From: a virus
Taxonomy: Duplodnaviria > Caudoviricetes
Reading direction: 5' to 3' (one strand)
DNA: 64,000 nucleotides
Virus record (IMG/VR): IMGVR_UViG_3300028591_000106
Span: 64,001 to 128,000 of that record
The notes under the pieces were generated by a model, which saw only the letters and a program-made list of their open reading frames with translations, had not been told where the DNA came from and made no database searches. Both the position numbers and the translations under genes were made by a program. Below are positions 1-64,000 of the stretch, one piece after another (position 1 is the first letter of the stretch; each line of letters begins with the position of its first letter).

Positions 1-561
1 ATCGCCATTAAATTTAAAAATACTAACCTTGCCAAGTGATGCATCATAGTCTGGCGGCGGAATAATTAAATATTCATTATAACTAAAAGCATGATCTTCA
101 CACTCGAAAGTGCCTGTTTCACAAAGTTCTGCAAGAATAGAGTTATAAACTTCTCTGCTCATATCAGAAATATTAAGATAATAAGCTCCAACATAATCGC
201 TAATAAAAGAATATCCTTCAGTATTAACGCCAAGAACTTTTGCTCGAACTTTTAATGAAATATCATTAGTTACAAGTACACCATTGCGTTCTTTAGTTAG
301 CTATATAAGTTGGTCATCGGCGCTTACTCCCTTTGGATCGTCAAGAGTAAATTCAATATTACTAATATTCATATTTTTAGCAATAGTGACTGCCGCCTTA
401 CGAGCCTTCTATCCAATTTCTGAATTTTGATTTTTCTTCAGATCATCAATTTCTCTTAATACACACATTGGAATAATCCAATATTCCTCTTCTCTAGTTA
501 CTACTTGAGGGTAATCAAGAAGAACATTTGTATCAAGGATTTTAACTTTCTTATCTTCCAA
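1..561 (-). CDS. PIN-domain/PhoH2-like protein, N-terminal part (runs off the window)
   Basis: TTG start; ILDTNVLLDYP...IPMCVLREIDDLKK PIN motif; open only if in-frame TAGs are read as Gln; the PhoH ATPase domain would lie outside the window. Confidence 0.75.
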
Positions 562-581
562 AAGTCTTCAACTCCTAATAA

Positions 582-613
582 AAAAGAGGGGAAGCATAAA
601 ACTCCCCCTCTTT
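582..613 (-). terminator. intrinsic terminator
   Basis: AAAGAGGGGGA/TCCCCCTCTTT inverted repeat with A/T tracts, downstream of the ATPase gene. Confidence 0.7.
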
Positions 614-620
614 ATAGATT

Positions 621-1586
621 TTAAAGAACGGCGGTTTTAATTTCATTTAGTGCCTGATGCAATTTTTCAACATCTTGCGGCAAAATCTCTGAAAACTTAG
701 TAGGCTTACCAAAGACCTCTTCAAGAATCTTAGAAACCTCTTCCACCTTTCCGGCATCTGTTGCCTAAGTAAAGACAATCTTTGCCTGTTCAATTAATTC
801 ATCAAAATTAAGTTCAAGATAAGCATTATCAGCTTCAGTTGCCTGAGAGTTATGAGCTTCAGCTTCTTTATCACAAGCGGTCTGAATGGCTTCAGCAATA
901 TCATTATAACTAAATTTTACCTTTGGCTCAATATACTGAAAACGAGACTTTGCAAGGAATCTTTCGTCTCCTCTGAAGAATATGAAACGCTCCTTATTGC
1001 CTTCGTTATCAATAGGAATAAGACGAATATAACCAACAAGGTCAACCATCTTATTGATAATATCAAAAGGACGAGCAGGAAGAGCTGGAACAATTCGTGT
1101 ATATTCCTTGCCAGCGTCATCCTTAAAGACTTTTTCTGTAGCATGGGAAATAAATACAATACCATAGCCAGATTTAGAAAGAGTATCGAGACCAGAGATT
1201 AGTTCTTGCTTTGCAATTTCATAACCCTAGCCCCAATTGAGTTCTCCAATACGAACTACATTATTATCAGCGCAGATCTTTCTTACGAGAAGTTCCCACA
1301 TCATATCAGCAGTATCAATACAAATTGTCTCGAACTTTTCTTTAAGGGCTTCATTCTTAGAAAGCTGATTTACAACAGATTTCCAGTCTGACCAAGTTTT
1401 AATCTGCTGAACAAAAACATTGTCCAAAGCATTAGTACCTTGTTCAAATCCTAAAATCAATGATTTTGGAAACTATGAAGCCAATGTGGTTTTACCAATA
1501 CCAGGGTCTCCATAAAGAAGGATGAACTTGCCTTTAAGACTACGGCTAATTCTCTGCGGTTCAAGTGCCATTAAATTTACAGCCAT
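621..1586 (-). CDS. AAA_24/Sak4-like ATPase (recombination protein), 321 aa
   Basis: Walker A GDPGIGKTT, Walker B TICIDT, FISH motif; joins track ORFs through TAG at 1473, 1227 and 765; ends TAA. Confidence 0.8.
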
Positions 1587-1626
1587 TTATATCCCTCCTA
1601 ATATTTAGATAAAAGTCCAGTTGGGA

Positions 1627-2538
1627 TTACCAACTGAACTTATTATCAGTCTTAGGAGTCTGAGTTCTACCCTGCGGTGCCTTTGTCTTGCTCTCCTCAA
1701 TACGCTTCAAACGAGCCTGAAGACCTGCCATGATGTCGTCGGAATCATAAGCACGCTCTTCGCTAAGACCACACTCGGAACCACTTGTGATGATAAACTC
1801 ACGGCAGCTAGTAGTCTTCTTACGAATAATAGGCTCACCAAAGCCCTGCTTCTCTTCCCAAGTCTCTACCTTATGAGACATATTGATTCTACCAGCGATC
1901 TTAACAGTATCGCCTTCATTCCAGTTTGCAGAAATGAACTGAACTGCGCTAGGAGAAGCTGCAATCATAGGAATGACATCTACCTTGCCCTGATAGCCAA
2001 CAACAGCAACAGTAACTTCAAGTCTACCAGTTTCAATGCCTTCCTTATCTACTTCAGGCTTAGTCTTGAGAATAGTACCACTAATCTCAAATCTAGCTTC
2101 AGGAGTAAAATCTTCAAGAGAACCATTATAAACATTCAGGAAGTTAGAACGAATCTTGTAAGAACTTCTCTCCTGATTGCTTCTGGAGTCAAACCAGACA
2201 TTTTCACTAAGCTGTGCGCCCTTAACAGTAATCTTAGAAGCCAACTGCGGCTGATCTTCTGGACAGGCGGCGAGAGAGGTAAGCTTTTCCTTGTAACCAA
2301 CAACGATTGGATAAAGGTTGCTAACTGTACCATCTTTCTTCAGCTTCGTTGCATAAAGCTCAATAGGAATTTCGCATTCACTGAGCTATCCGTTGATTTC
2401 CTGATCCACTTTAATGGTAGCCTTACCAACAACGATATCCTTGCCGTCAGCAGTCTACTTCTCTTCAAGCTCTAGTTCTTTCAAAATACCGGTAACATCT
2501 ACATTATTAATACTTGGTGTTTCATTAATATTAAGCAT
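1627..2538 (-). CDS. putative OB-fold single-stranded DNA-binding protein, 303 aa
   Basis: ATG 2538 with GGAGG RBS; 2 TAG near the N-terminus; beta-rich with a flexible tail ending in an aromatic residue; next to the Sak4-like ATPase. Confidence 0.55.
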
Positions 2539-2633
2539 TCTTTAACCTCCAAACAATTACAACTATAAAGTAAATTAGGAAATCAACGGAGCGCTTAAAC
2601 GCTCCGCTAATCCCTACCGACTATTAGTAATTA

Positions 2634-3475: not shown

Positions 3476-5884
3476 TTAGGCTTTTATCAAATCTACAATT
3501 TTTGATCCTTCAGGAAGTTTCATCGCTTTAACACCAGTTGCTTCACGAGACAATACTCTCAGTTCGCCAGTATTAAATTTCAGAGTTCCTTTGTTTGATA
3601 TAACAATTATATCACAGTCTTCATTCAAAGTCAAGAATTTAACTATTTCATCGCCCTCTCGAACGCCAGAAATCCTCTTGCCTTTGATACCTCTATTGCA
3701 AACAGGGAAATCAGCAATATCGGCTTTCTTAATAAGACCATCACTGGATACTGTAACAAGATACTTACCAGTAATAATCTTGGAATCAATTACCTTATCG
3801 CCATCACTTAGCTTAATCGCTTTTACTCCGGCGGTTACTCTACCAATCGTGGTTATTGATTCTGTATCAATTATAACATAATTTCCAAAAGAAGTCAAGA
3901 TTCCGACTCGCTCTTTATTCATAAAATGAACAGCGACAACTTCATCATCATCTTTAAGATTGATAGCCTTCAAAGACTTTCCACGCTTCTTCTCATATTC
4001 AGATGCACTTGTCTTTTTAATCATACCATTTTTAGTAATAAAGACAAAGTTTTCCACTTCACTCTTACGAGCAATAGTAGTAATAGTATTGATTCTTTCG
4101 CCATTTGTAAACTCAAAAAGCTGATTTACATTGATCTTACCACCGACAGGTAAATCAGATGTGGCAATAGAATACATATTACCCTTATTGGAAAATGCAA
4201 GAAGCGTACCAAGATTGTTGTCAGAAAGAGTTTGAGTTATAGCTTCTCTATCGCCAACTTTAACTTTTGATCCTTTACCGCCGCGGCGAACAGACATAAG
4301 AGTAGAAGACTCCTGTGTATAAATATTGCCGAGGTTGGTAAAGTGAATAAGAAGTTCCTTCTTTTCGATAGGTTCTGCATCTTCTTCTTCGCCGGCAAAG
4401 TCAAAATTAGTCAAACGAGTTCTACGCTCGTCGCCATATTTCTTTGCAATTTCACGAAGATCTTTCTCGATTTCTGCATAAAGTAACTTATTATCAGCAA
4501 GAATATCTTCATGCTCCTTCTTCTCAACGAGAAGTTTTGCTTTTTCATCGTCATAAGATGAACTCTCAAGATGAGTCAATTTGCTTAAAGTGAGTTTAAG
4601 AATAGCATCAGCTTGTTCTTCATCAAGAGGATACTTCTTCATCAGCTCAGATCTAGCTTGATCTTTATCATCAGAGAAACGAATTGTCTGAACTACATCA
4701 TCAATATTTGCAATAGCAATAAGTAAACCATCTATAATGTGAATACGATGCGTAATCTTTTTAATGTAGAATTGATGAATTTTAGTTCTAATATCAATCT
4801 CATGGTCAAGGTGCGCCTGCAAAGCCTCTTTCCAAGAAAAGAGTTTAGGATAAGTACCATGATCAAGCATAATCATGTTAATAGGATAACAAGAATCCAA
4901 ATCTGTCTTTTTGAACAGAGTTTTAATCATCTTGCTAGGATTAACACCTTTTTCAAGAACAATCTTTAGATTTGCGGTATTTTTAGACAAATCCTTAATT
5001 CCGTCTTTTGCAATACCAATAATCTCTCCGTTATTGATTCCATCAACAATCTGCTCAACAATAGTATGAGTATAAACTCCATATGGAACTTCTGTAAAAT
5101 ACAACGCATTTTCATCAGAATTAAACTCTACAGTTGCTCTCATACGAACAGAACTACCCAGCTTCTTGCCGTTCCATTTCATACCTTGCACAGCTTCACC
5201 ACCGCCATATCGAAGAACTTCCTTAACAGCATCTGCATTAAGAATAGTTCCACCGATACAGAAATCCGGTGCGCAATAGATTTCATCAAAATCAATATCT
5301 GGATTCCACAATAATTTAATCATAGCTTCATTAACTTCTCTTAAATTAAACTGTGGAATAGAACTTGCCATAGCCGTAGCAATACCAGAAGTACCATTTA
5401 CAATATTATAAAATCCTAAAGAAGGAACTACACTTGGGAATTGTTTTGTTCCAGAATAATTGTCAAACCAAATGTCTACGCAATCTTCGTCAATCCCGTC
5501 ATAAAGCTGGCAACCAAGTTCACCTAGTCTCATATCAGTATAACGGGCGGCGGAAGGCTTACCAGTTTTAATATGACCAAACTGTCCCTTAAATCCCATA
5601 AGAGGATATCTCATGTTATAAGGACGAGCAAGTCTTGTTAAAAGATCATAACAGGCGGCGTCACCATGAACATAGAAATCTGCCATAGCTCCACCGACAC
5701 ATTCTTGAGACTTAACAAAAGGTTTCTTATAAGTATATTTACGAAGAAGCAATGAATACATACACATACGATGAGACGGCTTTAAACCGTCTCTCGCATC
5801 AATAACAGCACGATCTTGAATTGTCATGCCAGCATATGTACCAAAGCTATCTTCAACAACAGATAACATATCGAGTTCGTTCAT
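3476..5884 (-). CDS. gyrA: type IIA topoisomerase subunit A (GyrA/ParC-like)
   Basis: DGLKP, YVHGD, AARYT catalytic Tyr, C-terminal beta-pinwheel repeats; no TAG. Confidence 0.92.
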   Translation of the reverse strand: MNELDMLSVVEDSFGTYAGMTIQDRAVIDARDGLKPSHRMCMYSLLLRKYTYKKPFVKSQECVGGAMADFYVHGDAACYDLLTRLARPYNMRYPLMGFKGQFGHIKTGKPSAARYTDMRLGELGCQLYDGIDEDCVDIWFDNYSGTKQFPSVVPSLGFYNIVNGTSGIATAMASSIPQFNLREVNEAMIKLLWNPDIDFDEIYCAPDFCIGGTILNADAVKEVLRYGGGEAVQGMKWNGKKLGSSVRMRATVEFNSDENALYFTEVPYGVYTHTIVEQIVDGINNGEIIGIAKDGIKDLSKNTANLKIVLEKGVNPSKMIKTLFKKTDLDSCYPINMIMLDHGTYPKLFSWKEALQAHLDHEIDIRTKIHQFYIKKITHRIHIIDGLLIAIANIDDVVQTIRFSDDKDQARSELMKKYPLDEEQADAILKLTLSKLTHLESSSYDDEKAKLLVEKKEHEDILADNKLLYAEIEKDLREIAKKYGDERRTRLTNFDFAGEEEDAEPIEKKELLIHFTNLGNIYTQESSTLMSVRRGGKGSKVKVGDREAITQTLSDNNLGTLLAFSNKGNMYSIATSDLPVGGKINVNQLFEFTNGERINTITTIARKSEVENFVFITKNGMIKKTSASEYEKKRGKSLKAINLKDDDEVVAVHFMNKERVGILTSFGNYVIIDTESITTIGRVTAGVKAIKLSDGDKVIDSKIITGKYLVTVSSDGLIKKADIADFPVCNRGIKGKRISGVREGDEIVKFLTLNEDCDIIVISNKGTLKFNTGELRVLSREATGVKAMKLPEGSKIVDLIKA

Positions 5885-5905
5885 TTTATCACTCCTTATA
5901 ATAAT

Positions 5906-5934
5906 ATTATATCATATTTACTTTTAAAAGTCAA
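5906..5934 (-). promoter_or_regulatory. sigma70-type promoter
   Basis: TTGACT-17bp-TATAAT. Confidence 0.75.
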
Positions 5935-5937
5935 ATG

Positions 5938-7830
5938 TTAAACATTATTATACTTACTAAAATCAATACGAGACATAACGAACTCTTTTCTTGGCTTAAT
6001 ATCAACACCCATAAGCTCGCAAAGTCTTTGAGCAGCTTCTTCTGAGTATATAATCTGCTCCATCTTTTGTCCGCCAGTTTTAGAGAACATTGTTGCCTTC
6101 AAGTCTGCTTCTTCAAGCTGACCAAGTCCTTTAATACGGTCCAAGTCGCCTTTGATCTTGCCCTTAGCTTTTGCGGCGGCAAGCTCTTCATCAGTATAAT
6201 ACCAGCTCAATGGCTGCATATTTTTATCATACGCAATATGAAGAGGACAGCGTAGCCAGTATACACGATTTTCTTGTAAAAATTGAGGACAAATTCTATA
6301 AAGGTTGGCGAGAATAAGAAGTGCAATATGATAGCCGTCATCATCAGCATCAACGCAGATAGCAATTTTTCCATAACGGAGTTTCTTTTTATCATAGTGA
6401 CCAACATCAATTCCTAGAGCATAGATTAAAAGCTCAATTTCTTTATTGCTAAAATACTTTTCATCGTCATCTTCTTTTAATCCATTTAACATCTTACCAC
6501 GAAGATACATTACTCCATAGTTCTTTGTATCTCGACCTGCGATAATTGCATTGCCTGCAGAGTCTCCCTCGCACACACAAAGAATAGAATCTTCACCCAA
6601 GTTCTCTGCATCAGCAAGTTTATCAAGAAAAGCTACCTTCTGCTTACGAAGTTCATTCATCTTCTTATTACGATTCAATGCGGCTTCTCTTGCTTTATTT
6701 GCAGCTTTTTCAGCATTTGCAAATTTCTTCATCATTTCAATGATAGGTCCAAAGTCAGGAGTATCAGAGAATTGAGTCAGTCCATCATCAAATGCCTGTG
6801 ATGCAAGAGTACGAAGATTAGGGTTGTTAATCTTGCTCTTAGTCTGGTTTGCAAATGAAGGATTGACAACGCGGCAGTTAATCGCATATACTAATCCTTT
6901 ACGAATAAGGTCTGGATCAAAGTTCTCTCCACTTAAAGATTTAATCTTTGTGGTGATCTTTGTTTTAGCTCCAGTGATAGGAGAGCCGCCTTCCGGACAA
7001 TAAAGACCATTAACAAAAACATAGTCTTGAGTAGGATCTGCAGTCCACATGAAAGCAATTTCTACTTCATCAACTCCATCTGTTGCAGAAGCAAGAATCG
7101 GAGCAAGCATAAGCGGCTTTTCAACATGGTCTCGAATGAAGTCTGCGATACCATTTTCAGAGTAATATTCCTCTTTCTTACCTCCCTTTGTAGCAACAAT
7201 AAAATGAATACCTCTGTTAAGGTAAGAAATATTCTTTATCTCACTACAAATTCTTTCATAAGAAAAGCCTTCTGTATCATTAACAAAAACTTCTTTATCA
7301 GGTTTAAAAACGATAAGAGTTCCAGTTTTCTTTTTATCGTCTACAACAATACCGCTATCTTTAAGATTAACTTCTCGATAATCTTTCAGGATACCTTTAT
7401 CGAAGCAGGCTTCTGCAACTTTTCCATCTCTAATACTACGAACATTAAAATATTCTGAACTCATACATACAGCTGTACCGCCAATACCGTTAAGTCCAGA
7501 ACTATTTTTATATGCGTTTTTATCAAACTTACCACCGGTATGACTCTCAGTATAAATTGCAACAAGGATGTTCTTCCCGTCTTTAATACCAAAAGGAACG
7601 CCGCGTCCATAGTCTCTTACTTCGATACGGTCAGTTTCCTCATCAAGAGTAATTTCAATTCTATCGCCATAACCAGCTAAAGCCTCATCAGTAGAGTTGT
7701 TTATAATCTCTTTAAGTGCCTGATAAATACCTTCAGTGTCATCTGAACCAAGATACATTTGAATACGAGTTCTCATAGCTTCTCTTGTTTCAAGATGCTG
7801 AATACTATCAATACTATAATCTTGAGCCAT
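5938..7830 (-). CDS. gyrB: type IIA topoisomerase subunit B (GyrB/ParE-like)
   Basis: EIINNSTDE, DYGRGVP, HTGGKF, EGDSA, LRGK, DADDDG, KGLG motifs; no TAG. Confidence 0.93.
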   Translation of the reverse strand: MAQDYSIDSIQHLETREAMRTRIQMYLGSDDTEGIYQALKEIINNSTDEALAGYGDRIEITLDEETDRIEVRDYGRGVPFGIKDGKNILVAIYTESHTGGKFDKNAYKNSSGLNGIGGTAVCMSSEYFNVRSIRDGKVAEACFDKGILKDYREVNLKDSGIVVDDKKKTGTLIVFKPDKEVFVNDTEGFSYERICSEIKNISYLNRGIHFIVATKGGKKEEYYSENGIADFIRDHVEKPLMLAPILASATDGVDEVEIAFMWTADPTQDYVFVNGLYCPEGGSPITGAKTKITTKIKSLSGENFDPDLIRKGLVYAINCRVVNPSFANQTKSKINNPNLRTLASQAFDDGLTQFSDTPDFGPIIEMMKKFANAEKAANKAREAALNRNKKMNELRKQKVAFLDKLADAENLGEDSILCVCEGDSAGNAIIAGRDTKNYGVMYLRGKMLNGLKEDDDEKYFSNKEIELLIYALGIDVGHYDKKKLRYGKIAICVDADDDGYHIALLILANLYRICPQFLQENRVYWLRCPLHIAYDKNMQPLSWYYTDEELAAAKAKGKIKGDLDRIKGLGQLEEADLKATMFSKTGGQKMEQIIYSEEAAQRLCELMGVDIKPRKEFVMSRIDFSKYNNV

Positions 7831-8058: not shown

Positions 8059-9006
8059 TTACTTCTGCTCCTTCAAATACTTGATTGCACTTTGTACTGC
8101 ATTAGCTCCATCAGATGCAGCAGTTAGAGCTTGTCGTGTCATTTTTGTGCGACAATCTCCGGCGGCAAAGAAGCCTGGATTAAGCATACTAATACCAGTA
8201 TCCAATGCGGTTATATAACCGTCTTTATTAACTACATCAGAAATATTAATATGAGCAGTATTTGGAATCATACCAATCGCGACAAAAACTCCGTCAACAC
8301 TAATACATAGCAATCTTGCTTTACCATCATCTGGTACTTTACGGAACAATACTATTTTATGCTGCTCTTCGCCATCAGTAATAGAAAAGCGATTTGTTGC
8401 AATTTCATTAACGATAAAATCATAGGTAATGTGAATATTTTTAATTTTAGAAACTCTTTCAAAAGTTGCTGGTGCTGCAGTTACATTGCGGTCGCACATA
8501 ATAATATGAACTTGCTTACAAATCTTTGATAGATATTCTGCTTGAGTAAAAGCCACATCACCGCCGCCAATAACAGCAACAGTTTTATCTTTATATAGTG
8601 CTCCGTCACAAAGTGCGCAATAATGAATCGGGATTCCTTCTTCGATTTCACAATTCAATTCTCTATGTCTTGCGCCAAGGGCATAAATGATTGCTTTCGC
8701 ATAGTCTTCTGTACCATCAGTATATTCAACTGCGAATCCGCCTTCTACAAGTTCACTAACTACTCCTATCTCATGTTCTTCAACTTTAATTCCATTTGCT
8801 TCAAGTTGATCATGAAGTTTCATAGCTAAATCGAAGCCAGACATTGGTTCTACACAAGGAAAATTTTCTACAAGAATAGCATTACTAATCTATCCGAAGT
8901 CATATTCATCGCGTCCAACAAGTTTAAAATCAAGATTTGCGCGCTTAGCATAGAGGGCGGCAGTCATACCTGCCATACCATTACCGAGAATTATTAAGTC
9001 TTTCAT
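8059..9006 (-). CDS. trxB: thioredoxin reductase, 315 aa
   Basis: GNGMAGMTAALYA FAD motif, FG(TAG)I at the conserved GQ, HYCALCDG redox motif, VIGGGD, FAAGD. Confidence 0.9.
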
Positions 9007-9172
9007 CGTCTACCTCCTCGAATAAAGATAAGCCATCTTCAATGTTAATTGATTCTCCATTATAACCTATAATTGTGCCGTCACAATCTGAATCTTTGTC
9101 AATTAATCCCATTTCATTAAGAATCTTATCAAGTGATGATAAAGCTTCTTCAGAAAAATCAATATGCTTCAC
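8981..9172 (-). CDS. hypothetical protein
   Basis: track ORF coupled to its neighbours by overlap. Confidence 0.5.
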   Translation of the reverse strand: MKHIDFSEEALSSLDKILNEMGLIDKDSDCDGTIIGYNGESINIEDGLSLFEEVDDERLNNSR

Positions 9173-54749: not shown

Positions 54750-55636
54750 TGGGCGGAGGAAGCTGGACAAGTAAGGATTTTGCTACCTACTCTACTACGA
54801 GAGGTTTAAGTTATGACGCATCCACGGGAGCAATCGACTCCCGTGGACTAACCGCGCAGGATATGTATAGGTCTACACATCTGGATGACTCTCTCAATCC
54901 CCATCTCGTTATTCGTGAGTGTTGCGACTCTGAAGAGCATCCTAATACTATTCCTGTAATTTTGGCTCTGGATGTAACTGGATCTATGGGAGCAACTGCG
55001 GTTGAAGTAGCATCTAAGCTAAATGTTCTTATGACCAATCTCTATGAGAAGATTCAAGATGTTGAATTTATGATTATGGGCATTGGAGACTTCTACTGCG
55101 ACGATGCCCCACTTCAGGTATCTCAGTTTGAATCCGATATTCGTATCGCAGAGCAGCTCGATAAGGTTTGGTTTGAAGGCGGCGGCGGCGGTAATGGTTT
55201 TGAATCTTATACTGCGGCATGGGCTTTTGCAAATGATCGAACCAAGCTTGACTGCTGGAATAGGGGTAAGAAAGGCTTGCTAATTACTATCGGTGACGAG
55301 CCAATCAACCCTTATATTGACAAGGATAGGTGGAGACATACAGTTGACGAGACCGAGCTGTCTCTTGAAACAAAGGATCTTTATGATCAGGTCACCACGA
55401 AGTATGATGTATACCATATCCATGTTAAGCATGGCGGCAATTATTATGGCAATGTTGCAGTTCCTTCTTTTGCAAAGGTAATTGGAGAGAGCAATGTAAA
55501 GGTTGCTAGTGTCGATTCTATTGTTCAGACTATTACTGACATTGTTTGTAATCATGCTCAGTCTTCTGCTACTACTACTGCTACCGATCTGGCGGCGGAA
55601 ACTAAGTTCAATGAAGACGGAGATATCGTCTGGTAA
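54749..55636 (+). CDS. von Willebrand factor A domain protein
   Basis: MGGGSW N-terminus, LALDVTGSM MIDAS, QFESD, EGGGGGN..ESY, TIGDE. Confidence 0.85.
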   Translation: MGGGSWTSKDFATYSTTRGLSYDASTGAIDSRGLTAQDMYRSTHLDDSLNPHLVIRECCDSEEHPNTIPVILALDVTGSMGATAVEVASKLNVLMTNLYEKIQDVEFMIMGIGDFYCDDAPLQVSQFESDIRIAEQLDKVWFEGGGGGNGFESYTAAWAFANDRTKLDCWNRGKKGLLITIGDEPINPYIDKDRWRHTVDETELSLETKDLYDQVTTKYDVYHIHVKHGGNYYGNVAVPSFAKVIGESNVKVASVDSIVQTITDIVCNHAQSSATTTATDLAAETKFNEDGDIVW

Positions 55637-55646
55637 GGAGTAACAA

Positions 55647-56825
55647 ATGTTTTATATTGTGACGGGAGCAAATTATGGAGACGAGGGAAAAGGTCTTGTG
55701 ACTAATGCTTTTGCAAGTGAAGACTGCCTTGTCGTATTGAGCACTGGATCGTCTCAGCGCGCTCATACTGTTGTACATGACGGGAAGAGAATTGTCTTTC
55801 GTCACTTTGGTAGCGGCACTCTTAAGGGTGCCGCGACCTATTTTGCGAAGGATTTTCTTGTAAACCCTGCTATGTTTAGACAGGAGTATCTGAAGTTAGA
55901 AGCTATGGGTATTACGCCCGTAGTTTATATGCATGAAGATTGTGCATTCGTAACTCCAGTAGATATGTTCGCAAGTATAAATATTGAATCAAGACGCGAA
56001 AATCGTCATGGTACTACTGGATGCGGCGTTTGGGAAGCTATTCGCCGTGGCAAATATGTTGGAGAAATTACTGAAGCTCGTAGAGTAGAAGATGTCGGAT
56101 GTATTGACAGTGATTTGATTAAATACTATGAACATCGTCTTGCAGGCATTGAAGATGAAATTCCGCAGGTTGCACTAGACTTTTTGCACGGTCCAGCATT
56201 AGCACACAATTTTAGACAAGATGTAGAATTCATGTTGGATCATATCAAACTTATTCGTTACGATGAAGAAAAGTCATTCCTTCATAAATGGAAAGATATT
56301 ATCTTTGAAAATGGTCAGGGACTACTTCTCGACACAGATTATGTAGGGGAAAGTATATATACTACACCTTGCCATGTTGGTGCGCGTATTCCTGCAAGAA
56401 TTATCTTTGAGAATTTTGCAGGCGAAAATCCACAGGTGGAGTCTATCTATGTAACGAGGACCTATCTTACTCGTCATGGCGCAGGTGATTTTGCTAATGG
56501 TAGTGCAGGTACAACTCTGTATAGCAATCTTTCTCCATATATGACGGAAGATAAGACTAATGTTCCTAATTTTGGTCAAGGTTCTATCCGTTACGAAGCT
56601 TTTGATAATGCAGCAGGTCATGATTTAGTTCGTCGTATTAACGATGATACTAATATTCTTCGCAGCTATGGCATTGATGCATCAATTTCTCTTGCTGTAA
56701 CTCATACAAATGAATTTGCATTAGAGAATTTGACACAGCAAATGATATTTAGCAATCCTTATCATTATAAATATAGATTATATACATCTGATAATGAGGC
56801 TACACTCAATTTAGAAGGGGAATAA
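55647..56825 (+). CDS. purA: divergent adenylosuccinate synthetase-like protein
   Basis: GANYGDEGKG, HTV, FRHFGSG, HGTTGCG, FENGQGLLLD, TRTYLTRHGAG, QG.IRY. Confidence 0.75.
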   Translation: MFYIVTGANYGDEGKGLVTNAFASEDCLVVLSTGSSQRAHTVVHDGKRIVFRHFGSGTLKGAATYFAKDFLVNPAMFRQEYLKLEAMGITPVVYMHEDCAFVTPVDMFASINIESRRENRHGTTGCGVWEAIRRGKYVGEITEARRVEDVGCIDSDLIKYYEHRLAGIEDEIPQVALDFLHGPALAHNFRQDVEFMLDHIKLIRYDEEKSFLHKWKDIIFENGQGLLLDTDYVGESIYTTPCHVGARIPARIIFENFAGENPQVESIYVTRTYLTRHGAGDFANGSAGTTLYSNLSPYMTEDKTNVPNFGQGSIRYEAFDNAAGHDLVRRINDDTNILRSYGIDASISLAVTHTNEFALENLTQQMIFSNPYHYKYRLYTSDNEATLNLEGE

Positions 56826-56826
56826 A

Positions 56827-57003
56827 ATGGGTATACTTATAATTCTTTTTATTGTTGTTGTTGCAGTAGCTATATCTTTTTTCATTGCAGCTAGTAAAAA
56901 GTACGATAAGGATGATAAGTTTTCTGCTATTTATTGGGCGGCACTAGGTGGATTCTGGATAAGTATAGCTATTGACATCTTTAAGGCATTTTTTAAGGAG
57001 TAA
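56827..57003 (+). CDS. small two-TM protein
   Basis: hydrophobic ORF following the purA-like gene. Confidence 0.45.
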   Translation: MGILIILFIVVVAVAISFFIAASKKYDKDDKFSAIYWAALGGFWISIAIDIFKAFFKE

Positions 57004-57075
57004 CTATTAAAAATTTGACTTTCTAAAAAAAATATGCTATAATTATTATAGAAAAGTTGAGAAAGGAGCAGAGAT

Positions 57076-57996
57076 ATGACGGAATTTTATATGATGATCG
57101 GAATTGCAGGTTCTGGTAAGTCTTTCATTGCAGAGAAGTATGCTCGTTTGCATAATGCTGTTATTGTATCTTCTGATGCAATTCGTGGTGAACTTTTTGG
57201 TGATGAGAATGACCAGACGCATAATGCCGAAGTTTTCGAGGAGGTTCATCGTCGTATTCTGAACGCTCTTAAGGCAGGACAGAACGCGATTTATGATGCA
57301 ACGAATCTTTCTGCAAAGCGCCGCAAGGCATTTTTAACGCAGATCCCTGCTGATGTGGAGAAGATCGCTGTGGTTATTGCTACGGATCTCGATGTTGCTC
57401 TGCGTCAGAATGCAAGCCGTGATCGTCAGGTCCCGCCTGATGTTATCAAGACGATGCTTCTGCGCCTTCAGATGCCTCGTATCAGCGAGGGTTGGAATGG
57501 TATTGACTACATTTCTAACCCTAACAACAAGAGTGATATTCTTTCTGTCATTAAGCCTTGCGTGGGCTTCGATCAGGATAACCCTCATCACTCTGCTGAG
57601 CTGTTTGACCATATGCAGCAGGCGGCGCAGTATGTCACGATTCATGCTCATGAGTATGGATTCAGTGGTATGGATGAAGCAGAAGTCTATATTGCTGCAC
57701 TTATCCATGACATCGGTAAGCCTATTTGTAAGACATATAAGCTGTGGAGTGGAAAGATCGACGATCATGCACATTACTACGGTCATGCCGATGTTGGTGC
57801 ATATATGGTCGCTTGCTTACTTCGCACTGTTCCTGCAGAGGATTACGGTCGTTGGATGACGATTCTTGAGCTGATTCAGTATCATATGGACTGCTATGCA
57901 AGTGACGACTGGCTTGAAAAAATTGATCGTGAAAAGGGTAAGGTTTTCCGTGATAAGATTGCTTTACTTCACGAGGGGGATAAGAATGGACACTGA
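57076..57996 (+). CDS. polynucleotide kinase (AAA_33) fused to an HD phosphohydrolase
   Basis: GIAGSGKS, SSDAIR, DATN...RR, R.R.VP; QDNPHH...H, LIHDIGK, HYYGH, YHM, HEGD; promoter at 57015-57043; no TAG. Confidence 0.85.
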   Translation: MTEFYMMIGIAGSGKSFIAEKYARLHNAVIVSSDAIRGELFGDENDQTHNAEVFEEVHRRILNALKAGQNAIYDATNLSAKRRKAFLTQIPADVEKIAVVIATDLDVALRQNASRDRQVPPDVIKTMLLRLQMPRISEGWNGIDYISNPNNKSDILSVIKPCVGFDQDNPHHSAELFDHMQQAAQYVTIHAHEYGFSGMDEAEVYIAALIHDIGKPICKTYKLWSGKIDDHAHYYGHADVGAYMVACLLRTVPAEDYGRWMTILELIQYHMDCYASDDWLEKIDREKGKVFRDKIALLHEGDKNGH

Positions 57997-58300
57997 AAAG
58001 AAATATGCGGTTATTACCTATTTTATCGGTAATGATATCGGTAACGGGGTTAAAGTCGAAGTAGTCGAGCATCTTGGCAAACTACTAACTTGTACTATTT
58101 GCGACACTCCAATGGGCGCTATCAAAGAATTTGAGTCACAAGTTAATACGCTTTGTTGGAATAAGTGTCTTACTGACTGTATGAAGTCGTATTATAGAGG
58201 CTCAGACAATGTTTGTAGAGATATATTTCTCTATACCGAAGGTGACGATGGTGTTGTTTCACTGTGCCGTGTAGCTATTGTATTGGCAGGTGAATATTAA
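57986..58300 (+). CDS. hypothetical protein
   Basis: GAGGGG RBS, coupled to neighbours. Confidence 0.55.
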   Translation: MDTEKKYAVITYFIGNDIGNGVKVEVVEHLGKLLTCTICDTPMGAIKEFESQVNTLCWNKCLTDCMKSYYRGSDNVCRDIFLYTEGDDGVVSLCRVAIVLAGEY

Positions 58301-58488
58301 TGGATCTCACCCTTGAAGAGCTTCAGCTCATTCCCAAAGATGTTTCGCCGCATTAGTTTGAAGAAATCGGTGTCTATAAAAATGTAACTGTTCAAGTTTT
58401 AAGATGTCCCCATTGCGGCGAATTAAGTGTGGGGTGGATTAAACAGCCAGACACTGAAGTCATTTACGAAAAGGAGGAAGAACAATGA
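58300..58488 (+). CDS. small zinc-ribbon protein
   Basis: NVTVQVLRCPHCGE.SVGW; one TAG. Confidence 0.55.
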
Positions 58489-58880
58489 CATAGGTATATA
58501 TCCTAGCTGGTGTAGCCGCAGCTCTTTTAGTCGCCGGTATTATTGTTGGCAAAGTCGGATCAAATAGGTGTAAGACTGCACTTATTGCTCTGGGCTTTGT
58601 TTTAGGTTTTGCAGGCGTGATTACAGGATTCTTCGGCTATGAAACTTACATCATGCAACCCGTTGAATATTCAATTACAAATTGCCGCGAGGTCGAGGGC
58701 GGATATAAGCTTACCCTTGAAGGATCAATGAAGGGTTTTACTGGCGGCACAGTTTTTGTTACTGTTGATGAAGCAAAATCACTTAATCTTTTGGAATGTG
58801 ATGAAGAAGGTAATTGGAAATGGGTTGGCGGTAAGATCAACGAATCAAGAAATTGGATTTCAGATCACCGCGACAATTAA
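58485..58880 (+). CDS. membrane protein
   Basis: AGGAGG RBS, TAG at codon 3, 2 TM, joins track ORF 58617. Confidence 0.6.
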
Positions 58881-58884
58881 AAAT

Positions 58885-58913
58885 TTGACTTTTTTAGAAA
58901 ATTATGATATAAT
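58885..58913 (+). promoter_or_regulatory. sigma70-type promoter for the ncRNA-tRNA-DUF2828 transcript
   Basis: TTGACT-17bp-TATAAT with an extended -10 TG. Confidence 0.8.
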
Positions 58914-58949
58914 TATTATATAAGGTTGAGAGAGATCTCACTTATATTT

Positions 58950-59183
58950 ACGGCAGGATAACAGCAATCTATAAAATACAAATTTTATAATAGAGTATTG
59001 CTAAAATTTTTCTAACCTATTGGGCGCCGAAGAGCCACGGTTAGCGTCGCAGACTACGCAAGTTTGCCGTGGGCTACCCACGAGAGGGGTGGCAGCAATG
59101 ATTGCTAAAAGTCATCGGACTAATCGCTACTGCGTGAAAGAGCGATGTAGGGAGACTAAACCTGAAACAAAATTTCCTGTCGT
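58950..59183 (+). ncRNA. putative structured RNA (ACAGCAA element 1 with a large multi-hairpin insert)
   Basis: closing stem ACGGCAGGA/TCCTGTCGT, followed by TAACAGCAA; internal hairpins GCAGACT/AGTTTGC, GCTACCC/GGGTGGC, ATCGCT/AGCGAT. Confidence 0.6.
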
Positions 59184-59190
59184 GTTATTT

Positions 59191-59264
59191 GCCCGCGTAG
59201 CAGAATTGGCATATGCGTCCGACTCAAAATCGGAAGTTTGTGGGTTCAACTCCCACCGTGGGCA
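59191..59264 (+). tRNA. tRNA-Leu(CAA) with a short variable loop
   Basis: acceptor GCCCGCG/CGTGGGC, D-arm with GG, anticodon stem TCCGA/TCGGA with loop CTCAAAA, T-arm GTGGG-TTCAACT-CCCAC, discriminator A; no encoded CCA. Confidence 0.88.
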
Positions 59265-59267
59265 CTC

Positions 59268-59323
59268 AGTCACCAACAGCTAAAACATATTATTAAAACT
59301 TCCAATTTTAAGAATAGGTGACT
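59268..59323 (+). ncRNA. ACAGC hairpin element 2
   Basis: stem AGTCACC/GGTGACT with AACAGCTAA directly 3' of the 5' strand. Confidence 0.6.
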
Positions 59324-59329
59324 AGTCTT

Positions 59330-59382
59330 AGATTCATACAGCAACTCATATTATTTTAATTGGGTAGAATTAAATTGAATCT
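59330..59382 (+). ncRNA. ACAGC hairpin element 3
   Basis: stem AGATTCA/TGAATCT with TACAGCAA directly 3' of the 5' strand. Confidence 0.6.
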
Positions 59383-59400
59383 TGTAAGGAGGAAAAAGGA

Positions 59401-60873
59401 ATGAATTTTACAGATGCTATGAGAGGCGCAGCTAACCACACTCTTACTGAGAATGGTGCGGCTGTCTATAAGACCACCGGCAATGCAGTCCTTGACCTAT
59501 TTGCCAGAATTGGTGGTATGCGTAATGCAGATCCTCGTGAAGTTGAAGCAGCTTGGCTTCGTGCCCGCGACTTCGATAAGGAGCTTGCAGATAATCTGAT
59601 TCTTTATACCCGTAACATTCGTGAGGGCGGTCTCGGTGAGCGTAAGCTCGGTCAGATTATGCTTAAGCTGCTTGCTTTGAAGGATCCTTCTAAGGTTGCA
59701 AGAAACCTCGACACCATTGTCGCGGCTGGTCGTTATGATGACCTGTTTGTACTTCAGGGTACTAAGGTCGAGACCAGTATGATGGAGTACCTGCGTGCGC
59801 AGTTCCGTCAGGACATTGTTGACATGGGGCAGGGCAAGCCTATTTCCCTTCTGGCAAAGTGGCTGCCTTCTTGCAACGCAAGTTCTAAGGAGACTCGTAA
59901 GCTGGCTCGTAAGATGTATGTCTATTTTGGCATCTCTGAGCGCACTTACCGTAAGACTCTTTCTGCTCTGAGAAGCCATCTCGATGTTGTCGAGAAGAAG
60001 ATGTCTGCTCAGGAGTTCGACGAAATTGACTATCAGAAGGTTCCTTCTGTAGCCATGACTCGTTACCGCTCTGCTTTCGGTCGTCATGACTTCGAGCGTT
60101 TTGGTGAATATCTTAATGCGGTAAAGAAGGGTGATGCAAAGATCAATGCATCTGTCACCTACCCTTACGAGCTTATTCGCCCTTACATCCTCGGCAGAAG
60201 GGGCTGGGGTTGCCGTACAGCAGCAGCTCTTGATCCTGTTCTTGAGGCACAGTGGAAGGCTCTTCCTAACTATGTCGAGGGCAACCATAATGTTATCGTC
60301 ATGTGCGATACTTCTGGTTCTATGACCTGCGACAACTGCAAGCCTCTTGCAACTTCTGTTTCTCTTGGCATTTACTTTGCGGAGAGAAATACTGGTGCTT
60401 ATCAGAACCTCGTTATGAGCTTCTCTCAGTCTCCTGTTTTCTATGAACTGAATCCTCATGATTCTGTTCTTAACAGAACAAATGAGATCCTTCGTCACGA
60501 TCAACTGAACACCAACCTCGACGCAGCTCTTGATGCGGTATACCGTCTTGCAGTTAAGAGTGGAGACGCTCCTTCTGCACTCGTCATCATCTCTGATGGT
60601 GAGATTGACAGCTACCGTTACCAGAATGCTGCTGACATCGTTGAGAAGTGGCAGGCGATTTATGCAGGAAGCGGTATGGTCGCTCCTAAGCTTATCATGT
60701 GGAATGTTGAGTCTCGTGGCTCTCGTTACATTGGTAAGAAGGAGAACCCCGGCATTGCATACATCTCTGGTTCTTCTGCTTCTAGCTTCAAGGAGCTGGC
60801 AACGCTGATCTCTATGGATGCAGTTACCGCAATGACTCGTATCCTGACCAAGCCTCAGTTCCAGTGGAAGTAA
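59401..60873 (+). CDS. DUF2828-family Ro60/TROVE-like protein with a C-terminal vWA domain, 490 aa
   Basis: LTENGA...TTG...LDLF, R.IR.GGLGER, GRYDDL, ISLLAKWLPS, YRK.LS.LR, DTSGSM MIDAS, IISDGE.D, MWNV; no TAG. Confidence 0.82.
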   Translation: MNFTDAMRGAANHTLTENGAAVYKTTGNAVLDLFARIGGMRNADPREVEAAWLRARDFDKELADNLILYTRNIREGGLGERKLGQIMLKLLALKDPSKVARNLDTIVAAGRYDDLFVLQGTKVETSMMEYLRAQFRQDIVDMGQGKPISLLAKWLPSCNASSKETRKLARKMYVYFGISERTYRKTLSALRSHLDVVEKKMSAQEFDEIDYQKVPSVAMTRYRSAFGRHDFERFGEYLNAVKKGDAKINASVTYPYELIRPYILGRRGWGCRTAAALDPVLEAQWKALPNYVEGNHNVIVMCDTSGSMTCDNCKPLATSVSLGIYFAERNTGAYQNLVMSFSQSPVFYELNPHDSVLNRTNEILRHDQLNTNLDAALDAVYRLAVKSGDAPSALVIISDGEIDSYRYQNAADIVEKWQAIYAGSGMVAPKLIMWNVESRGSRYIGKKENPGIAYISGSSASSFKELATLISMDAVTAMTRILTKPQFQWK

Positions 60874-60874
60874 T

Positions 60875-60916
60875 CTAATATTATGGGGGCGGTTAATTCC
60901 GCCCCATAATATTAGA
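60875..60916 (+). terminator. long near-perfect palindrome after the DUF2828 gene
   Basis: TCTAATATTATGGGG(G)CGG-TTAATT-CCGCCCCATAATATTAGA; no U tract, so it may be a processing or stabilising stem. Confidence 0.5.
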
Positions 60917-60990
60917 GTATGGCGGCGAAATAAATACATATATTATGCGGGAGAAATCCTAGCTCAATAGATTATAGGAGTGTAAAGAAA

Positions 60991-61380
60991 ATGGCTACTA
61001 TGTATAAGTGTCCTGTATGCGGCAAGCAGTATACTGATCTTACTAAGCTTGCTGATTGTGTCAAGGCTGACGATGCAGCTATGAAAAAGGTTAAGAATGA
61101 TGAAAAGAATAGATATGCCAAGCTACTTGCTGCAGCTCGTGCTGATGTAAGAATGGCAGAAGATAAGCTCAGACAGAGCGTTAATGCTTACAATATGGTT
61201 GCCAATGATGCGGCAAAGAAAACTGGTGAGACCTATACTTCTTTGGAGTTCAAGGGTGTAGCTGCAGTAGCTCCAACAGCTTCAAATAAGTATGCTTTTA
61301 CTAAAGAGGCTGATGAAAAGGCTCTCGACAAGGCAGCAACTGATTTGGCAAATATTATTTTCCAGACACTTGGTATTTAA
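60991..61380 (+). CDS. hypothetical protein with an N-terminal zinc-finger-like motif and coiled coil
   Basis: YKCPVCGKQY....L..C. Confidence 0.65.
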   Translation: MATMYKCPVCGKQYTDLTKLADCVKADDAAMKKVKNDEKNRYAKLLAAARADVRMAEDKLRQSVNAYNMVANDAAKKTGETYTSLEFKGVAAVAPTASNKYAFTKEADEKALDKAATDLANIIFQTLGI

Positions 61381-61563
61381 TGGGGGAGTCAACTTTGGGG
61401 CGCAAGTTTATTCCAAATCTCCCTCAAGGAGATAAATTTTCTAAAGATACCGAGCGTGAAAATGAACGCAAGCGCGCACAAAAGCGTAGGGAAAATAGAA
61501 AGAAAGATCGCCGTAGAGATGACTATTATGACGACGACGATGAAGATTACGAATAACATCATA

Positions 61564-61595
61564 GGGCTAGGTCTATTTTGATCTAGCCCGTTTTT
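61564..61595 (+). terminator. intrinsic terminator
   Basis: GGGCTAGGTC/GATCTAGCCC followed by a T run. Confidence 0.65.
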
Positions 61596-61612
61596 GGTTT
61601 GGGAGGGGTTTA

Positions 61613-61840
61613 ATGATTACTTTTCTTTCAGCTCTTGGAGCATTACTTAGTCTGGGCGGCAATATAGCTATTGCAAAGAAAAAGAAAATTGGTTGGCTTA
61701 TTTGGATTGCAGGTAATATTGCTTGGATCATAGTTAATCTTTTGGGAGAGTTTAATTTGTCTATGGTTTTAATGTATGTAGCTTATCTCGGCATTAACAT
61801 TAAAGGCTTTATTGACTGGAATAAAGAAGGAAAAACTTGA
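61613..61840 (+). CDS. small PnuC-like (half-size, 3-TM) membrane protein
   Basis: AKKK..GWLIWI.GN..W...Y....I.GF..W pattern. Confidence 0.55.
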   Translation: MITFLSALGALLSLGGNIAIAKKKKIGWLIWIAGNIAWIIVNLLGEFNLSMVLMYVAYLGINIKGFIDWNKEGKT

Positions 61841-61896
61841 CTTTTTTCATATTATATGATATAATTATAATATAAAGATAAAAAGGAGAGGTAAGA

Positions 61897-62589
61897 ATGC
61901 ACGAGGTTAAGGACAAGACCATTTATTTCTTTGTTGATCGCAACAAAGGTAAGACATATTGTATCGGTGACTTCGACAAACTTATTGCTTTTCTTGCTGA
62001 GCGCATTCATTTCGAGAATCGTAAAGATTATGTAACTCAGCGTTTTGATAAGTGTGACTTCATTTATGATAATTGGGATTTCTCCGGTGGCGATGTCCAT
62101 TGGGTTACAGACTACAAGCTCGTTTGGGAGCGTTACTTTGATTGGCGTATTGAGAAGTTTGTATCTGGTTGGCATCATAAGAAGGTTGATTATCTTGCCG
62201 CCCGTCCTTATATGATTATTGATGATCGCGGCGGCACTATTGATTTCCGTATCTGGGAGTCACTTATCAATGCAGCTCGTGATAAAATGGTAAGTGGACA
62301 TCTTTGGGGGACAACTGCTGATGCCAAGTATGGCGAGCAGTTTGTTCGTTATCGCTATTCTAAGGAAACTTATCGCTTCCGTTGCGGTCCTGTCCCCGGA
62401 GTTCACAAGTATTCCTGCTATGGTAGCCGTCCTCATAAGGGGCTTCTGAATACTATTCGTAATGCAGATTCTATTCGTCCCAAGGCAAGAATTGATACGG
62501 ATTATTGGGATGATTTTTCACATACAGATAGATGCTGGAAAACTAACAGCAAGTGCCGTTATCAGTGGCAGAAAAATTTGAAAGGGTGA
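61897..62589 (+). CDS. hypothetical protein
   Basis: track ORF after promoter 61837-61865. Confidence 0.7.
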   Translation: MHEVKDKTIYFFVDRNKGKTYCIGDFDKLIAFLAERIHFENRKDYVTQRFDKCDFIYDNWDFSGGDVHWVTDYKLVWERYFDWRIEKFVSGWHHKKVDYLAARPYMIIDDRGGTIDFRIWESLINAARDKMVSGHLWGTTADAKYGEQFVRYRYSKETYRFRCGPVPGVHKYSCYGSRPHKGLLNTIRNADSIRPKARIDTDYWDDFSHTDRCWKTNSKCRYQWQKNLKG

Positions 62590-62593
62590 AATA

Positions 62594-62887
62594 ATGGAAA
62601 AGAGAAGAGGAACTGAAGCATTGGGAATGCAGGGATATGGTATTGATGCCTTGCTTTTTCAGTATCTTTATGGCTATATGGATACAGATACAACTACTAT
62701 TCCCGATGCAGTAAGAACTGGTTGGAATAACGCAATCGAATTTATTAGTTCAAATATTAGTGTAAATGCAGATTTCTCACAGTGGCTTGTAAGTCAGTTT
62801 AATGATAAGGAGACTGGAGAAGCCTATGTTAAGGCTTTTAGCGAATTTATAGGGAAGGATTTGTTCACTAATGAAAAAGAAAATTAA
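62594..62887 (+). CDS. hypothetical protein
   Basis: track ORF. Confidence 0.6.
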   Translation: MEKRRGTEALGMQGYGIDALLFQYLYGYMDTDTTTIPDAVRTGWNNAIEFISSNISVNADFSQWLVSQFNDKETGEAYVKAFSEFIGKDLFTNEKEN

Positions 62888-63281
62888 GATCGTTTCGCAT
62901 GGAACACAGTGGATAGATCCGAATCCTGCTCCGGTAATAATTTGTCCTGAATGTGGCGGCGAAAAATTGATCAATACATATAATCTGGATCGCTGCTATA
63001 AAGATTTTCTTTTAGTTTACCTTGAACGAGAAGGTGACTGTAGGAAATGTAAAGACTGTGGTTGCGTTTTTGAGATAGGTTCAAAGATTACAGTTAAAAA
63101 AGAACCTGCTTGGATTGCATTTGCTATTTTTGTAATTAGTTTAATTATTACGATTATATTGATGACATTTATTACCAATTATGCAACTATGGAAGAAGCG
63201 CCAGCGCTATTGACGCTTGGTGTTCTAGGTTCAATGATTTCAACAATGGTCAGCTTTGTAATTTGGTTGGCGCTATTATAA
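62871..63281 (+). CDS. zinc-ribbon protein with two C-terminal TM helices
   Basis: CPECG...CKDCG followed by hydrophobic helices. Confidence 0.6.
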   Translation: MKKKIKIVSHGTQWIDPNPAPVIICPECGGEKLINTYNLDRCYKDFLLVYLEREGDCRKCKDCGCVFEIGSKITVKKEPAWIAFAIFVISLIITIILMTFITNYATMEEAPALLTLGVLGSMISTMVSFVIWLALL

Positions 63282-63291
63282 GGAGGACGAA

Positions 63292-63510
63292 ATGTCAAAT
63301 ATTCAGGAACTTAAAGATGAACTTGAGATTCTTATGGCGCTTCCAGATTCTCAGGCAAAGCAACTTCAAACCTTGGCATTGATTGGCAAGATTCTTGTTC
63401 ACATGGAAGCACTTGAGAGGTTATATTTTAGGCAAGATATGAAAGTTACAGCTATTGAGAATAAATTAGATGAGGGCGGGAAGGTAGAAGTTAATGTTAG
63501 ATATCGCTAA
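63292..63510 (+). CDS. hypothetical protein
   Basis: AGGAGG RBS. Confidence 0.6.
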   Translation: MSNIQELKDELEILMALPDSQAKQLQTLALIGKILVHMEALERLYFRQDMKVTAIENKLDEGGKVEVNVRYR

Positions 63511-64000
63511 GAAACATGAAAAAGAATTTCAAGAGAAATATATCGAGACATGGTACGATTTACGATATCAGTACTACCGTGATAGCTCTGGTGATCGTAT
63601 TCCACAGCTTGCTGATAATTGCTATGATCGTAGAGATTTCGTTTCATTGAATGATGCCGGCGAAGTAATTGGCTTTATCAGCTATTTCTTCAATGATGTA
63701 AATTCAACAGCTTGTCAGTTCGGTATCATTAGTTTTGATATGGGCAACCGTGATTTTACAAAAGATGTTCTTCAGGTTATTGCAGATATATTCTTCAAAT
63801 TCCATCTTGATCGTATTGAGTTTTGGTGCTTTGATGACAATCCTGCGACCAATGGATATCGTGCTTTTATCAAGAGGTTCGGCGGCAGAGAGGTTGGACA
63901 TTTACGGAGATCTTGCAAGTTAATGGACGGAAACTTCCATGATTCTGTTATCTTCGAGATCTTGCGTGAAGATTTGAGAATGCGTCTTATGAGTCCAATA
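63494..64000 (+). CDS. GNAT (RimJ/RimL-like) acetyltransferase, runs off the window
   Basis: EVIGFISY, F.KF.L.RIEF....DNPA...Y....KRFGG..VG.LR....DG..HD....EIL; open to the window end. Confidence 0.7.
   Translation, partial: MLDIAKKHEKEFQEKYIETWYDLRYQYYRDSSGDRIPQLADNCYDRRDFVSLNDAGEVIGFISYFFNDVNSTACQFGIISFDMGNRDFTKDVLQVIADIFFKFHLDRIEFWCFDDNPATNGYRAFIKRFGGREVGHLRRSCKLMDGNFHDSVIFEILREDLRMRLMSPI

Follow-up and report, generated by a model that had tools for sequence, protein, structure and literature searches.

The DNA examined here comprises bases 64001-128000 of a 146,596-bp virus contig in IMG/VR (IMGVR_UViG_3300028591_000106). We refer to this 64,000-nucleotide stretch as the window, and positions are window positions unless marked as genome positions, which count along the whole contig. 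The contig is linear, has a GC content of 0.37 and is estimated by CheckV to be 89% complete; the phage, at 146.6 kb, is of the gut or rumen type. Our analysis indicates that it very probably uses genetic code 15, in which TAG is read as glutamine (Gln) genome-wide, only TAA and TGA terminate translation, and a tRNA with the anticodon CUA does the decoding. A sequence-only reading of the window had proposed exactly this recoding, and the proposal was borne out by coding density, by the residues in aligned homologues and by the discovery of a Gln-derived tRNA(CUA).

We calculated coding density from greedy non-overlapping open reading frame (ORF) models built for each possible read-through. Without read-through (code 11) the density was 0.705 in the window and 0.709 over the whole contig, and reading through TAG raised these values to 0.939 and 0.942. 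The corresponding values were 0.748 and 0.759 for TGA read-through, and 0.868 and 0.859 for TAA read-through. The number of genes on the contig fell from 262 to 167 once TAG was read through. Among genes of at least 100 amino acids (aa), in-frame TAG was found 507 times, compared with 574 occurrences of CAA and 512 of CAG, and including TAG brought the Gln-type share of all codons from 2.5% to 3.7%. The base following TAG did not differ from that following CAA or CAG (chi-square p = 0.10), and TAG was roughly uniformly positioned along genes (Kolmogorov-Smirnov p = 0.10); neither result supports a special context signal.

We also examined how genes end. In the set of genes of at least 100 aa, 75 ended in TAA, 45 in TGA and 0 in TAG, the last value being zero by construction of the ORF models. 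A stronger test came from a TAG-poor block of genes that begins at 48.4 kb, because TAG is rare there and ORFs can be called under code 11. Of 76 such ORFs, 45 ended in TAA, 27 in TGA and 4 in TAG; three of these four were nested, and the fourth would gain just 15 aa by read-through. TAG is not used as a terminator.

Read-through of TAG also filled two apparent deserts, one at 24-28 kb and the other at 31.6-38.4 kb, as the sequence-only reading had stated. They resolved into ORFs of 1287, 1285 and 962 codons (Table 1), each free of in-frame TAA and TGA, compared with 55-150 in the other five frames; the probability of such a stop-free frame arising by chance is ~1e-37, ~1e-37 and ~1e-28, respectively. 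Each of these giant ORFs closes with TAA or TGA, and 10-22 nt separate it from the start that follows, in agreement with the earlier statement that the joined genes end in TAA or TGA and couple to the next start. None of the three matched a Pfam or PHROG family, and a search of IMG/VR found no relatives of the 1287-aa ORF. In genes of recognizable family, residues 14-643 of the anaerobic ribonucleotide reductase NrdD align to residues 10-642 of Thermotoga maritima NrdD solely with read-through of its three TAGs, and code 11 shortens the ORF to 536 aa. The Gly-X-Y register of the collagen-repeat tail fibre runs unbroken across TAG, for example in GIQ-GI*-GEQ, where the asterisk marks TAG. Every TAG context quoted in the sequence-only reading was found: GEQGIQGI*GEQG and GEQGPQGE*GIQG in the collagen repeats, VC*N in NrdG, FG*I in TrxB, IDGI*A versus IDRIQM in the GH25 lysin, NIR*QN in UvrD and SYSQ*SQRY in ThyX.

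We determined which amino acid occupies the TAG positions by comparing the phage with its relatives. Searches of IMG/VR with NrdD and portal yielded 156 related loci, and in a Codetta-like test all phage proteins, with X at each TAG, were compared with these loci by tblastn. The subject codon was read wherever the flanks were conserved, giving 133 TAG sites with aligned relatives. The site-weighted residue frequencies at these sites were Q 0.41, E 0.11, K 0.10 and A 0.05, which comes close to the values at the phage's own CAA and CAG sites, Q 0.485, K 0.11 and E 0.09. With likelihoods based on substitution profiles learned from the same alignments, Gln was ahead of the next amino acid by ~124 nats, and it was the best choice in 1000 of 1000 site bootstraps, where its lead never fell below 78 nats. 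In the reverse test, in-frame TAGs of the relatives aligned with TAG in this phage in 28.5% of cases, with CAA in 12% and with CAG in 9%. At individual sites, residue 40 of NrdG was Gln in 65 of 72 relatives, residue 71 of the TrxB-like protein was Gln in all three aligned relatives, and two TAG sites in a gene of the TAG-poor block (genome 129218-129781) were Gln in 7 of 7 relatives.

Solved homologues of ThyX, UvrD, NrdD and GH113 were tried as residue witnesses and set aside, since only the Q motif of UvrD gave Gln: the TAG at residue 24 is matched by the Gln of this motif in E. coli UvrD. The other TAG sites checked against solved homologues fall at variable positions. The claim that TAG sits where Gln is expected was upheld for the NrdG and TrxB sites and for UvrD residue 24, and is not illustrated by ThyX residue 76, UvrD residue 74 or the NrdD and GH113 sites. 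Distant cellular homologues often lack Gln at TAG columns, and single examples therefore prove little; with solved homologues being poor witnesses, we relied on close phage relatives.

The sequence-only reading had seen no tRNA(CTA), GlnRS or release factor gene in the window, and our searches agree, with a single tRNA-Leu(CAA) as the only tRNA there and the only Rfam hit. A tRNA(CUA) was, however, present elsewhere in the genome, where that reading had proposed to look. It lies ~17 kb downstream of the window at genome 144941-145014 (ARAGORN) and scores 63.5 bits as an ordinary tRNA (Rfam). It belongs to an array of 10 tRNAs (genome 144.48-146.17 kb) that includes Gln(UUG) and Gln(CUG); with tRNA-Leu(CAA) the contig holds 11. 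The best matches of the tRNA(CUA) in related phage contigs were tRNA-Gln(CUG) genes of two phages, with 85% and 82% identity over all 74 nt. Its acceptor and D arms match those of tRNA-Gln(CUG) exactly, and the anticodon and T stems show paired changes. In the anticodon loop, CTCTAAC in this phage and CTCTGAC in a relative differ solely at position 36. This comparison shows that a phage tRNA-Gln(CUG) gave rise to the suppressor through a G36-to-A change. A near-consensus sigma-70-type site, TTGACT-17-TG-TATAAT, ends 29 nt upstream of the array. The search for a synthetase or release factor 2 (RF2) gene elsewhere in the genome had a different outcome: no release factor (PF00472) or GlnRS-type (PF00749) domain was found across the contig. 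Helper genes of this kind occur in some recoded clades only and are not a requirement for code 15. Directly after the array, at genome ~146235-146271, we also observed a marginal match to the abiF RNA motif (Rfam 39 bits, gathering score 37).

Related phages carry other suppressors. One relative (G012) has two tRNA(CUA) genes (L180:11700-11776 and 12221-12295) unrelated in sequence to that of this phage, and its orthologue of this phage's suppressor retains the anticodon CUG. A second relative (G009) has yet another unrelated tRNA(CUA) (L164:1489-1564). Suppressors in the group therefore appear to have several origins, which suggests that they may have been repeatedly born or replaced in related recoded phages.

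TAG is distributed unevenly among the gene modules. Its frequency per 1000 codons was 18.9 in the structural module (genome 4-49 kb), 16.8 in the tail fibre and lysis genes (19.7-48.3 kb), 5.6 in the replication genes and 3.2 in the promoter-rich block from 48.4 kb. In this last block the GC content at third codon positions (GC3) is higher and CAG is preferred, and across genes the share of TAG declines as GC3 rises (rho -0.36) and as the preference for CAG grows (rho -0.46). TAG is absent from the genes for the capsid protein, its scaffold-like neighbour, GyrA, GyrB, Pol III alpha and ligase, and relatives share this TAG-free state. Stereotyped TTGAC(A/T)-17-TG-TATAAT sites, near-consensus and sigma-70-type with an extended -10, cluster in the TAG-poor part of the window and are nearly absent from 20-40 kb; their second hexamers end at 45720, 48369, 57043, 58913 and 61865. 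The layout of TAG and promoters fits the published model in which code-neutral early genes and code-change factors are expressed first and recoded late genes after (10.1101/2021.08.26.457843).

The code and the origin of its tRNA follow from the counts and alignments above; for charging, timing and the defeat of release factor 1 (RF1) we infer the following course. The phage tRNA(CUA), expressed from the array behind its near-consensus promoter, would decode TAG as Gln after being charged by the host's tRNA-Gln-charging enzyme (GlnRS, or GluRS plus amidotransferase), a host role suggested because the contig has no synthetase or release factor gene. Host RNA polymerase would first transcribe the TAG-poor block from 48.4 kb and the tRNA array, and the build-up of suppressor would then permit translation of the TAG-rich structural, tail-fibre and lysis genes. 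Very abundant or essential proteins (capsid, scaffold-like, gyrase, Pol III alpha and ligase) would avoid TAG. The early/late order is thus a prediction from the layout of the genome.

At the head of the structural module we observed a putative late sigma factor (genome 4885-6129, plus strand; PHROG 5767, 3e-20) with 9 in-frame TAGs; it has no Pfam match. Should this sigma factor be genuine, transcription of the late genes would in turn require suppression. We regard repeated suppressor birth in the group, with the code switch possibly standing atop the expression cascade, as a tentative idea that could well be wrong.

Several observations weigh against this account. In UvrD, the TAG at residue 74 falls on the Lys of TFTNKAA; the one at ThyX residue 76 is matched by Leu in M. 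tuberculosis ThyX and by Arg in the sole aligned relative; and TAG sites align with L, Y and K in distant solved homologues of NrdD and with S, E and G in those of GH113. A few genes of the TAG-poor block hold genuine TAG sense codons (the gene at genome 129218-129781 is an example), and the evidence for the early/late order consists of gene content and matches to a promoter consensus only. The demand on suppression is also severe. ORFs with up to 79 TAGs (36 within the window) call for ~99% suppression per codon: the full-length yield of the 36-TAG ORF would be 70% at 99% suppression and 16% at 95%, and that of the 79-TAG ORF, outside the window, 45% and 1.7%. No RF2 gene or anti-RF1 function was found in the contig to meet this demand. 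Such ORFs may imply near-complete neutralisation of RF1 by an as-yet-unrecognised factor.

We considered other explanations for the same data. If the host itself read TAG as Gln, the phage would mirror its host and no code switch would take place during infection. In favour of this, no phage RF2 or aminoacyl-tRNA synthetase gene was found in the contig, and very TAG-rich ORFs require near-total suppression. No bacterium is known in which TAG encodes Gln, and we consider a host of this kind very unlikely, given that the phage carries its own suppressor tRNA, that TAG is strongly uneven among modules and missing from capsid, gyrase and polymerase genes, and that relatives mix standard-code and TAG-recoded loci. 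In addition, recoded prophages have been found to reside in standard-code hosts (10.1101/2021.08.26.457843). The genome does offer Gram-positive hints about the host, namely GH25 and CW_7 domains and similarity to phages of Enterococcus, Clostridioides and Staphylococcus.

That TAG is a sense codon for another amino acid, such as pyrrolysine, Glu or Lys, is less probable still. ARAGORN labels the CUA tRNA as tRNA-Pyl, its default for a CUA anticodon; Glu and Lys are the second and third commonest residues at TAG-aligned columns; and residue 74 of UvrD aligns with a conserved Lys. Yet Glu and Lys trailed Gln by ~124 nats and won 0 bootstraps, their share of 0.10-0.11 about equals that at the phage's own CAA and CAG sites, and the CUA tRNA shares 85% identity, along with its acceptor and D arms, with tRNA-Gln(CUG). 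Pyrrolysine was rejected with the CUA tRNA being canonical and Gln-like and the homologue columns pointing to Gln; pyrrolysine synthesis genes were not searched for. We give almost no credence to the idea that the TAGs are real stops, left by decay of a defective phage or by sequencing or assembly error. It is true that many genes are fragmented under code 11 and that JGI/IMG entries include truncated ThyX and NrdD fragments, but over 42,865 codons the frames are broken by TAG only, never by TAA or TGA, and without frameshifts. Dozens of independent contigs show this pattern too, and TAG positions are common to relatives or aligned with CAA or CAG. Code 15, with TAG read as Gln by the phage's own tRNA, is the reading we prefer.

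Recoding is widespread among the relatives, though not universal. Of 13 close portal relatives, the 11 loci of at least 8 kb were scanned, and all 11 gained density by TAG read-through; among distant portal loci 46 of 60 gained and 14 did not, and many NrdD loci showed no gain. One locus found with NrdD (L019, IMGVR_UViG_3300037400_003871, 27 kb, GC 0.27) rose in coding density from 0.86 to 0.97 under TGA read-through, with no gain from TAG. This relative may use code 4 while belonging to the same broad group; its TGA-to-Trp codon alignments held too few TGA/TGG pairs to decide. ThyX, the GH25 lysin and NrdD are already present in the ENA/Logan protein collection exactly as translated with TAG=Gln, and the JGI/IMG members of their 90%-identity clusters are truncated pieces. 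Annotation with table 11 makes about a quarter of the genome appear non-coding and splits NrdD, ThyX, lysins, portal and tail genes.

The window is arranged in three parts, with functions assigned by Pfam and PHROGs (Table 1). The minus strand of the first 19.7 kb carries replication and nucleotide metabolism genes, including an AAA_24 ATPase, an ATP-dependent DNA ligase and the GyrA/GyrB-like, TrxB-like, NrdG and NrdD genes. The plus strand from 19.7 to 48.3 kb encodes the collagen-repeat tail fibre, the three very large family-less ORFs, GH113, the GH25 lysin, a UvrD-type helicase, a CW_7 protein, ThyX and a GIY-YIG protein. From 48.4 kb on, the plus strand encodes helicase-nuclease, RNA ligase, SPFH, PurA-like, kinase+HD and DUF2828/VWA proteins (Pfam). 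Beyond the window the contig carries genes for portal, a probable capsid protein, virion proteins and a PHROG-level sigma factor, and for Pol III alpha, RecJ, DnaB and PhoH. GH113 aligns full-length to solved mannanases, and codon 2 of the GH25 lysin is a TAG (its start reads M*MKG).

Table 1. Features of the window (window positions), with the families matched and the in-frame TAG or stop codons counted.
Feature	Position	Strand	Evidence and codons
GyrA-like (3476-5884) and GyrB-like (5938-7830)	3476..7830	-	PF00521 1e-91; PF00204 + Toprim; 0 TAG
Thioredoxin-reductase-like flavoprotein	8059..9102	-	Pfam Pyr_redox_2; 3 in-frame TAG
NrdG-like radical-SAM activase	10094..10597	-	Pfam Fer4_12; 2 in-frame TAG
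Anaerobic ribonucleotide reductase NrdD	11375..13324	-	Pfam NRDD 5.5e-91; 3 in-frame TAG
Collagen-repeat tail fibre	20321..22843	+	Pfam Collagen, PHROG tail-fibre families; 8 in-frame TAG
1287-codon ORF, family-less	24143..28006	+	36 in-frame TAG, 0 in-frame TAA/TGA
GH113 glycoside hydrolase	28833..29972	+	Pfam GH113 1.7e-94; 3 in-frame TAG
GH25 lysin with C-terminal repeats	30206..31297	+	Pfam Glyco_hydro_25; 6 in-frame TAG
1285-codon ORF, family-less	31627..35484	+	25 in-frame TAG, 0 in-frame TAA/TGA
962-codon ORF, family-less	35497..38385	+	24 in-frame TAG, 0 in-frame TAA/TGA
UvrD-family helicase	38407..39567	+	Pfam UvrD-helicase; 4 in-frame TAG
CW_7 cell-wall-binding repeat protein	40202..41128	+	Pfam CW_7; 5 in-frame TAG
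ThyX thymidylate synthase	42177..42989	+	Pfam Thy1 2.7e-57; 4 in-frame TAG
GIY-YIG domain protein	42989..43981	+	Pfam GIY-YIG; 7 in-frame TAG; begins at thyX stop codon
TAG-poor, higher-GC, CAG-preferring block, start	48403..64000	+	Continues to genome 144.4 kb
tRNA-Leu(CAA)	59191..59265	+	ARAGORN, Rfam; sole tRNA in window

Some neighbouring genes deserve mention in their own right. The GIY-YIG protein recalls the heavily recoded homing endonucleases of Borges et al.; no group I intron was detected by Rfam. A divergent PurA-like protein of 392 aa (55647-56825, plus strand) matched PF00709 at 2.4e-24 and solved PurA structures at only 1e-13. The protein may be an enzyme of the PurZ type, serving 2-aminoadenine DNA, or an auxiliary PurA of the ordinary kind, and its best solved matches, ordinary adenylosuccinate synthetases with weak E-values, neither confirm nor exclude PurZ. 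Three TAG-free plus-strand genes form an RNA-repair-like set: an RNA ligase (PF09414; 51139-52047), a polynucleotide-kinase-like P-loop domain fused to HD that matches the kinase domain of C. thermocellum Pnkp (57076-57996), and a DUF2828/DUF7788/VWA (Ro/TROVE-like) protein that adjoins tRNA-Leu(CAA) (59401-60873).

TAG-to-Gln recoding was correctly cited in the sequence-only reading as known in gut phages (10.1101/2021.08.26.457843; PMC9523058; PMC10607447). It is already well documented, and what is known of phage genetic codes is unchanged by this case. What the phage offers is a well-resolved example, in which the origin of the suppressor can be traced to a single anticodon change in tRNA-Gln, and its TAG-avoiding abundant virion proteins beside ORFs of 24-79 TAGs, with no phage RF2, sharpen the question of how RF1 is overcome. 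Recoded phages of gut and animal-associated communities have suppressor tRNAs and a late-gene bias of TAG, and code 15 is known from the Lak, crAss-like, Garnet, Amethyst, Topaz and some Agate phages (Borges et al., 10.1101/2021.08.26.457843); for crAss-like phages there is metaproteomic proof of TAG-to-Gln (PMC9523058). Like these code-15 gut phages, the present one has its TAGs concentrated in genes for structure and lysis, encodes a suppressor tRNA(CUA), recodes its replication genes lightly, keeps a separate promoter-rich block nearly free of TAG, has a low GC content and lacks a synthetase, as is usual for them. It differs from them in having no RF2 gene and in the TAG-free state of the capsid and scaffold-like genes of its late module, and, unlike in the named code-15 clades, its capsid and portal resemble those of large Firmicutes siphoviruses.

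A closer parallel is phAss-1 (OQ749652), a TAG-recoded phage of 136 kb with tRNA-SUP-CTA genes and no synthetase, whose suggested hosts are Clostridia (PMC10607447) and for which a Phassvirus group has been proposed, Enterococcus phage EF1 being an outlier (Babkin et al. 2023, PMC10607447). The present phage is like that group in genome size (~136-146 kb), in having TAG in TerL, portal and tail genes, in carrying suppressor tRNA for CTA and in having no dedicated synthetase. Its capsid protein shares 33% identity with that of phAss-1 and 27% with its counterparts in Enterococcus phages EF1, EF5 and VRE9, and it has 1 suppressor tRNA versus 3 in phAss-1 and 11 tRNAs versus 36. A comparison of window positions 20-44 kb with INPHARED nucleotide sequences gave short collagen-repeat matches only. 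With distant protein similarity and no INPHARED nucleotide match, the two phages do not appear to belong to the same genus, and phAss-1 is the nearest published relative, a distant one. The E. coli supE-type amber suppressors are tRNA-Gln with the anticodon CUA, produced by a single CUG to CUA change. The suppressor described here resembles them in having this same change in a tRNA-Gln body; unlike them, it is carried by the phage and serves about one third of the Gln codons rather than occasional read-through.

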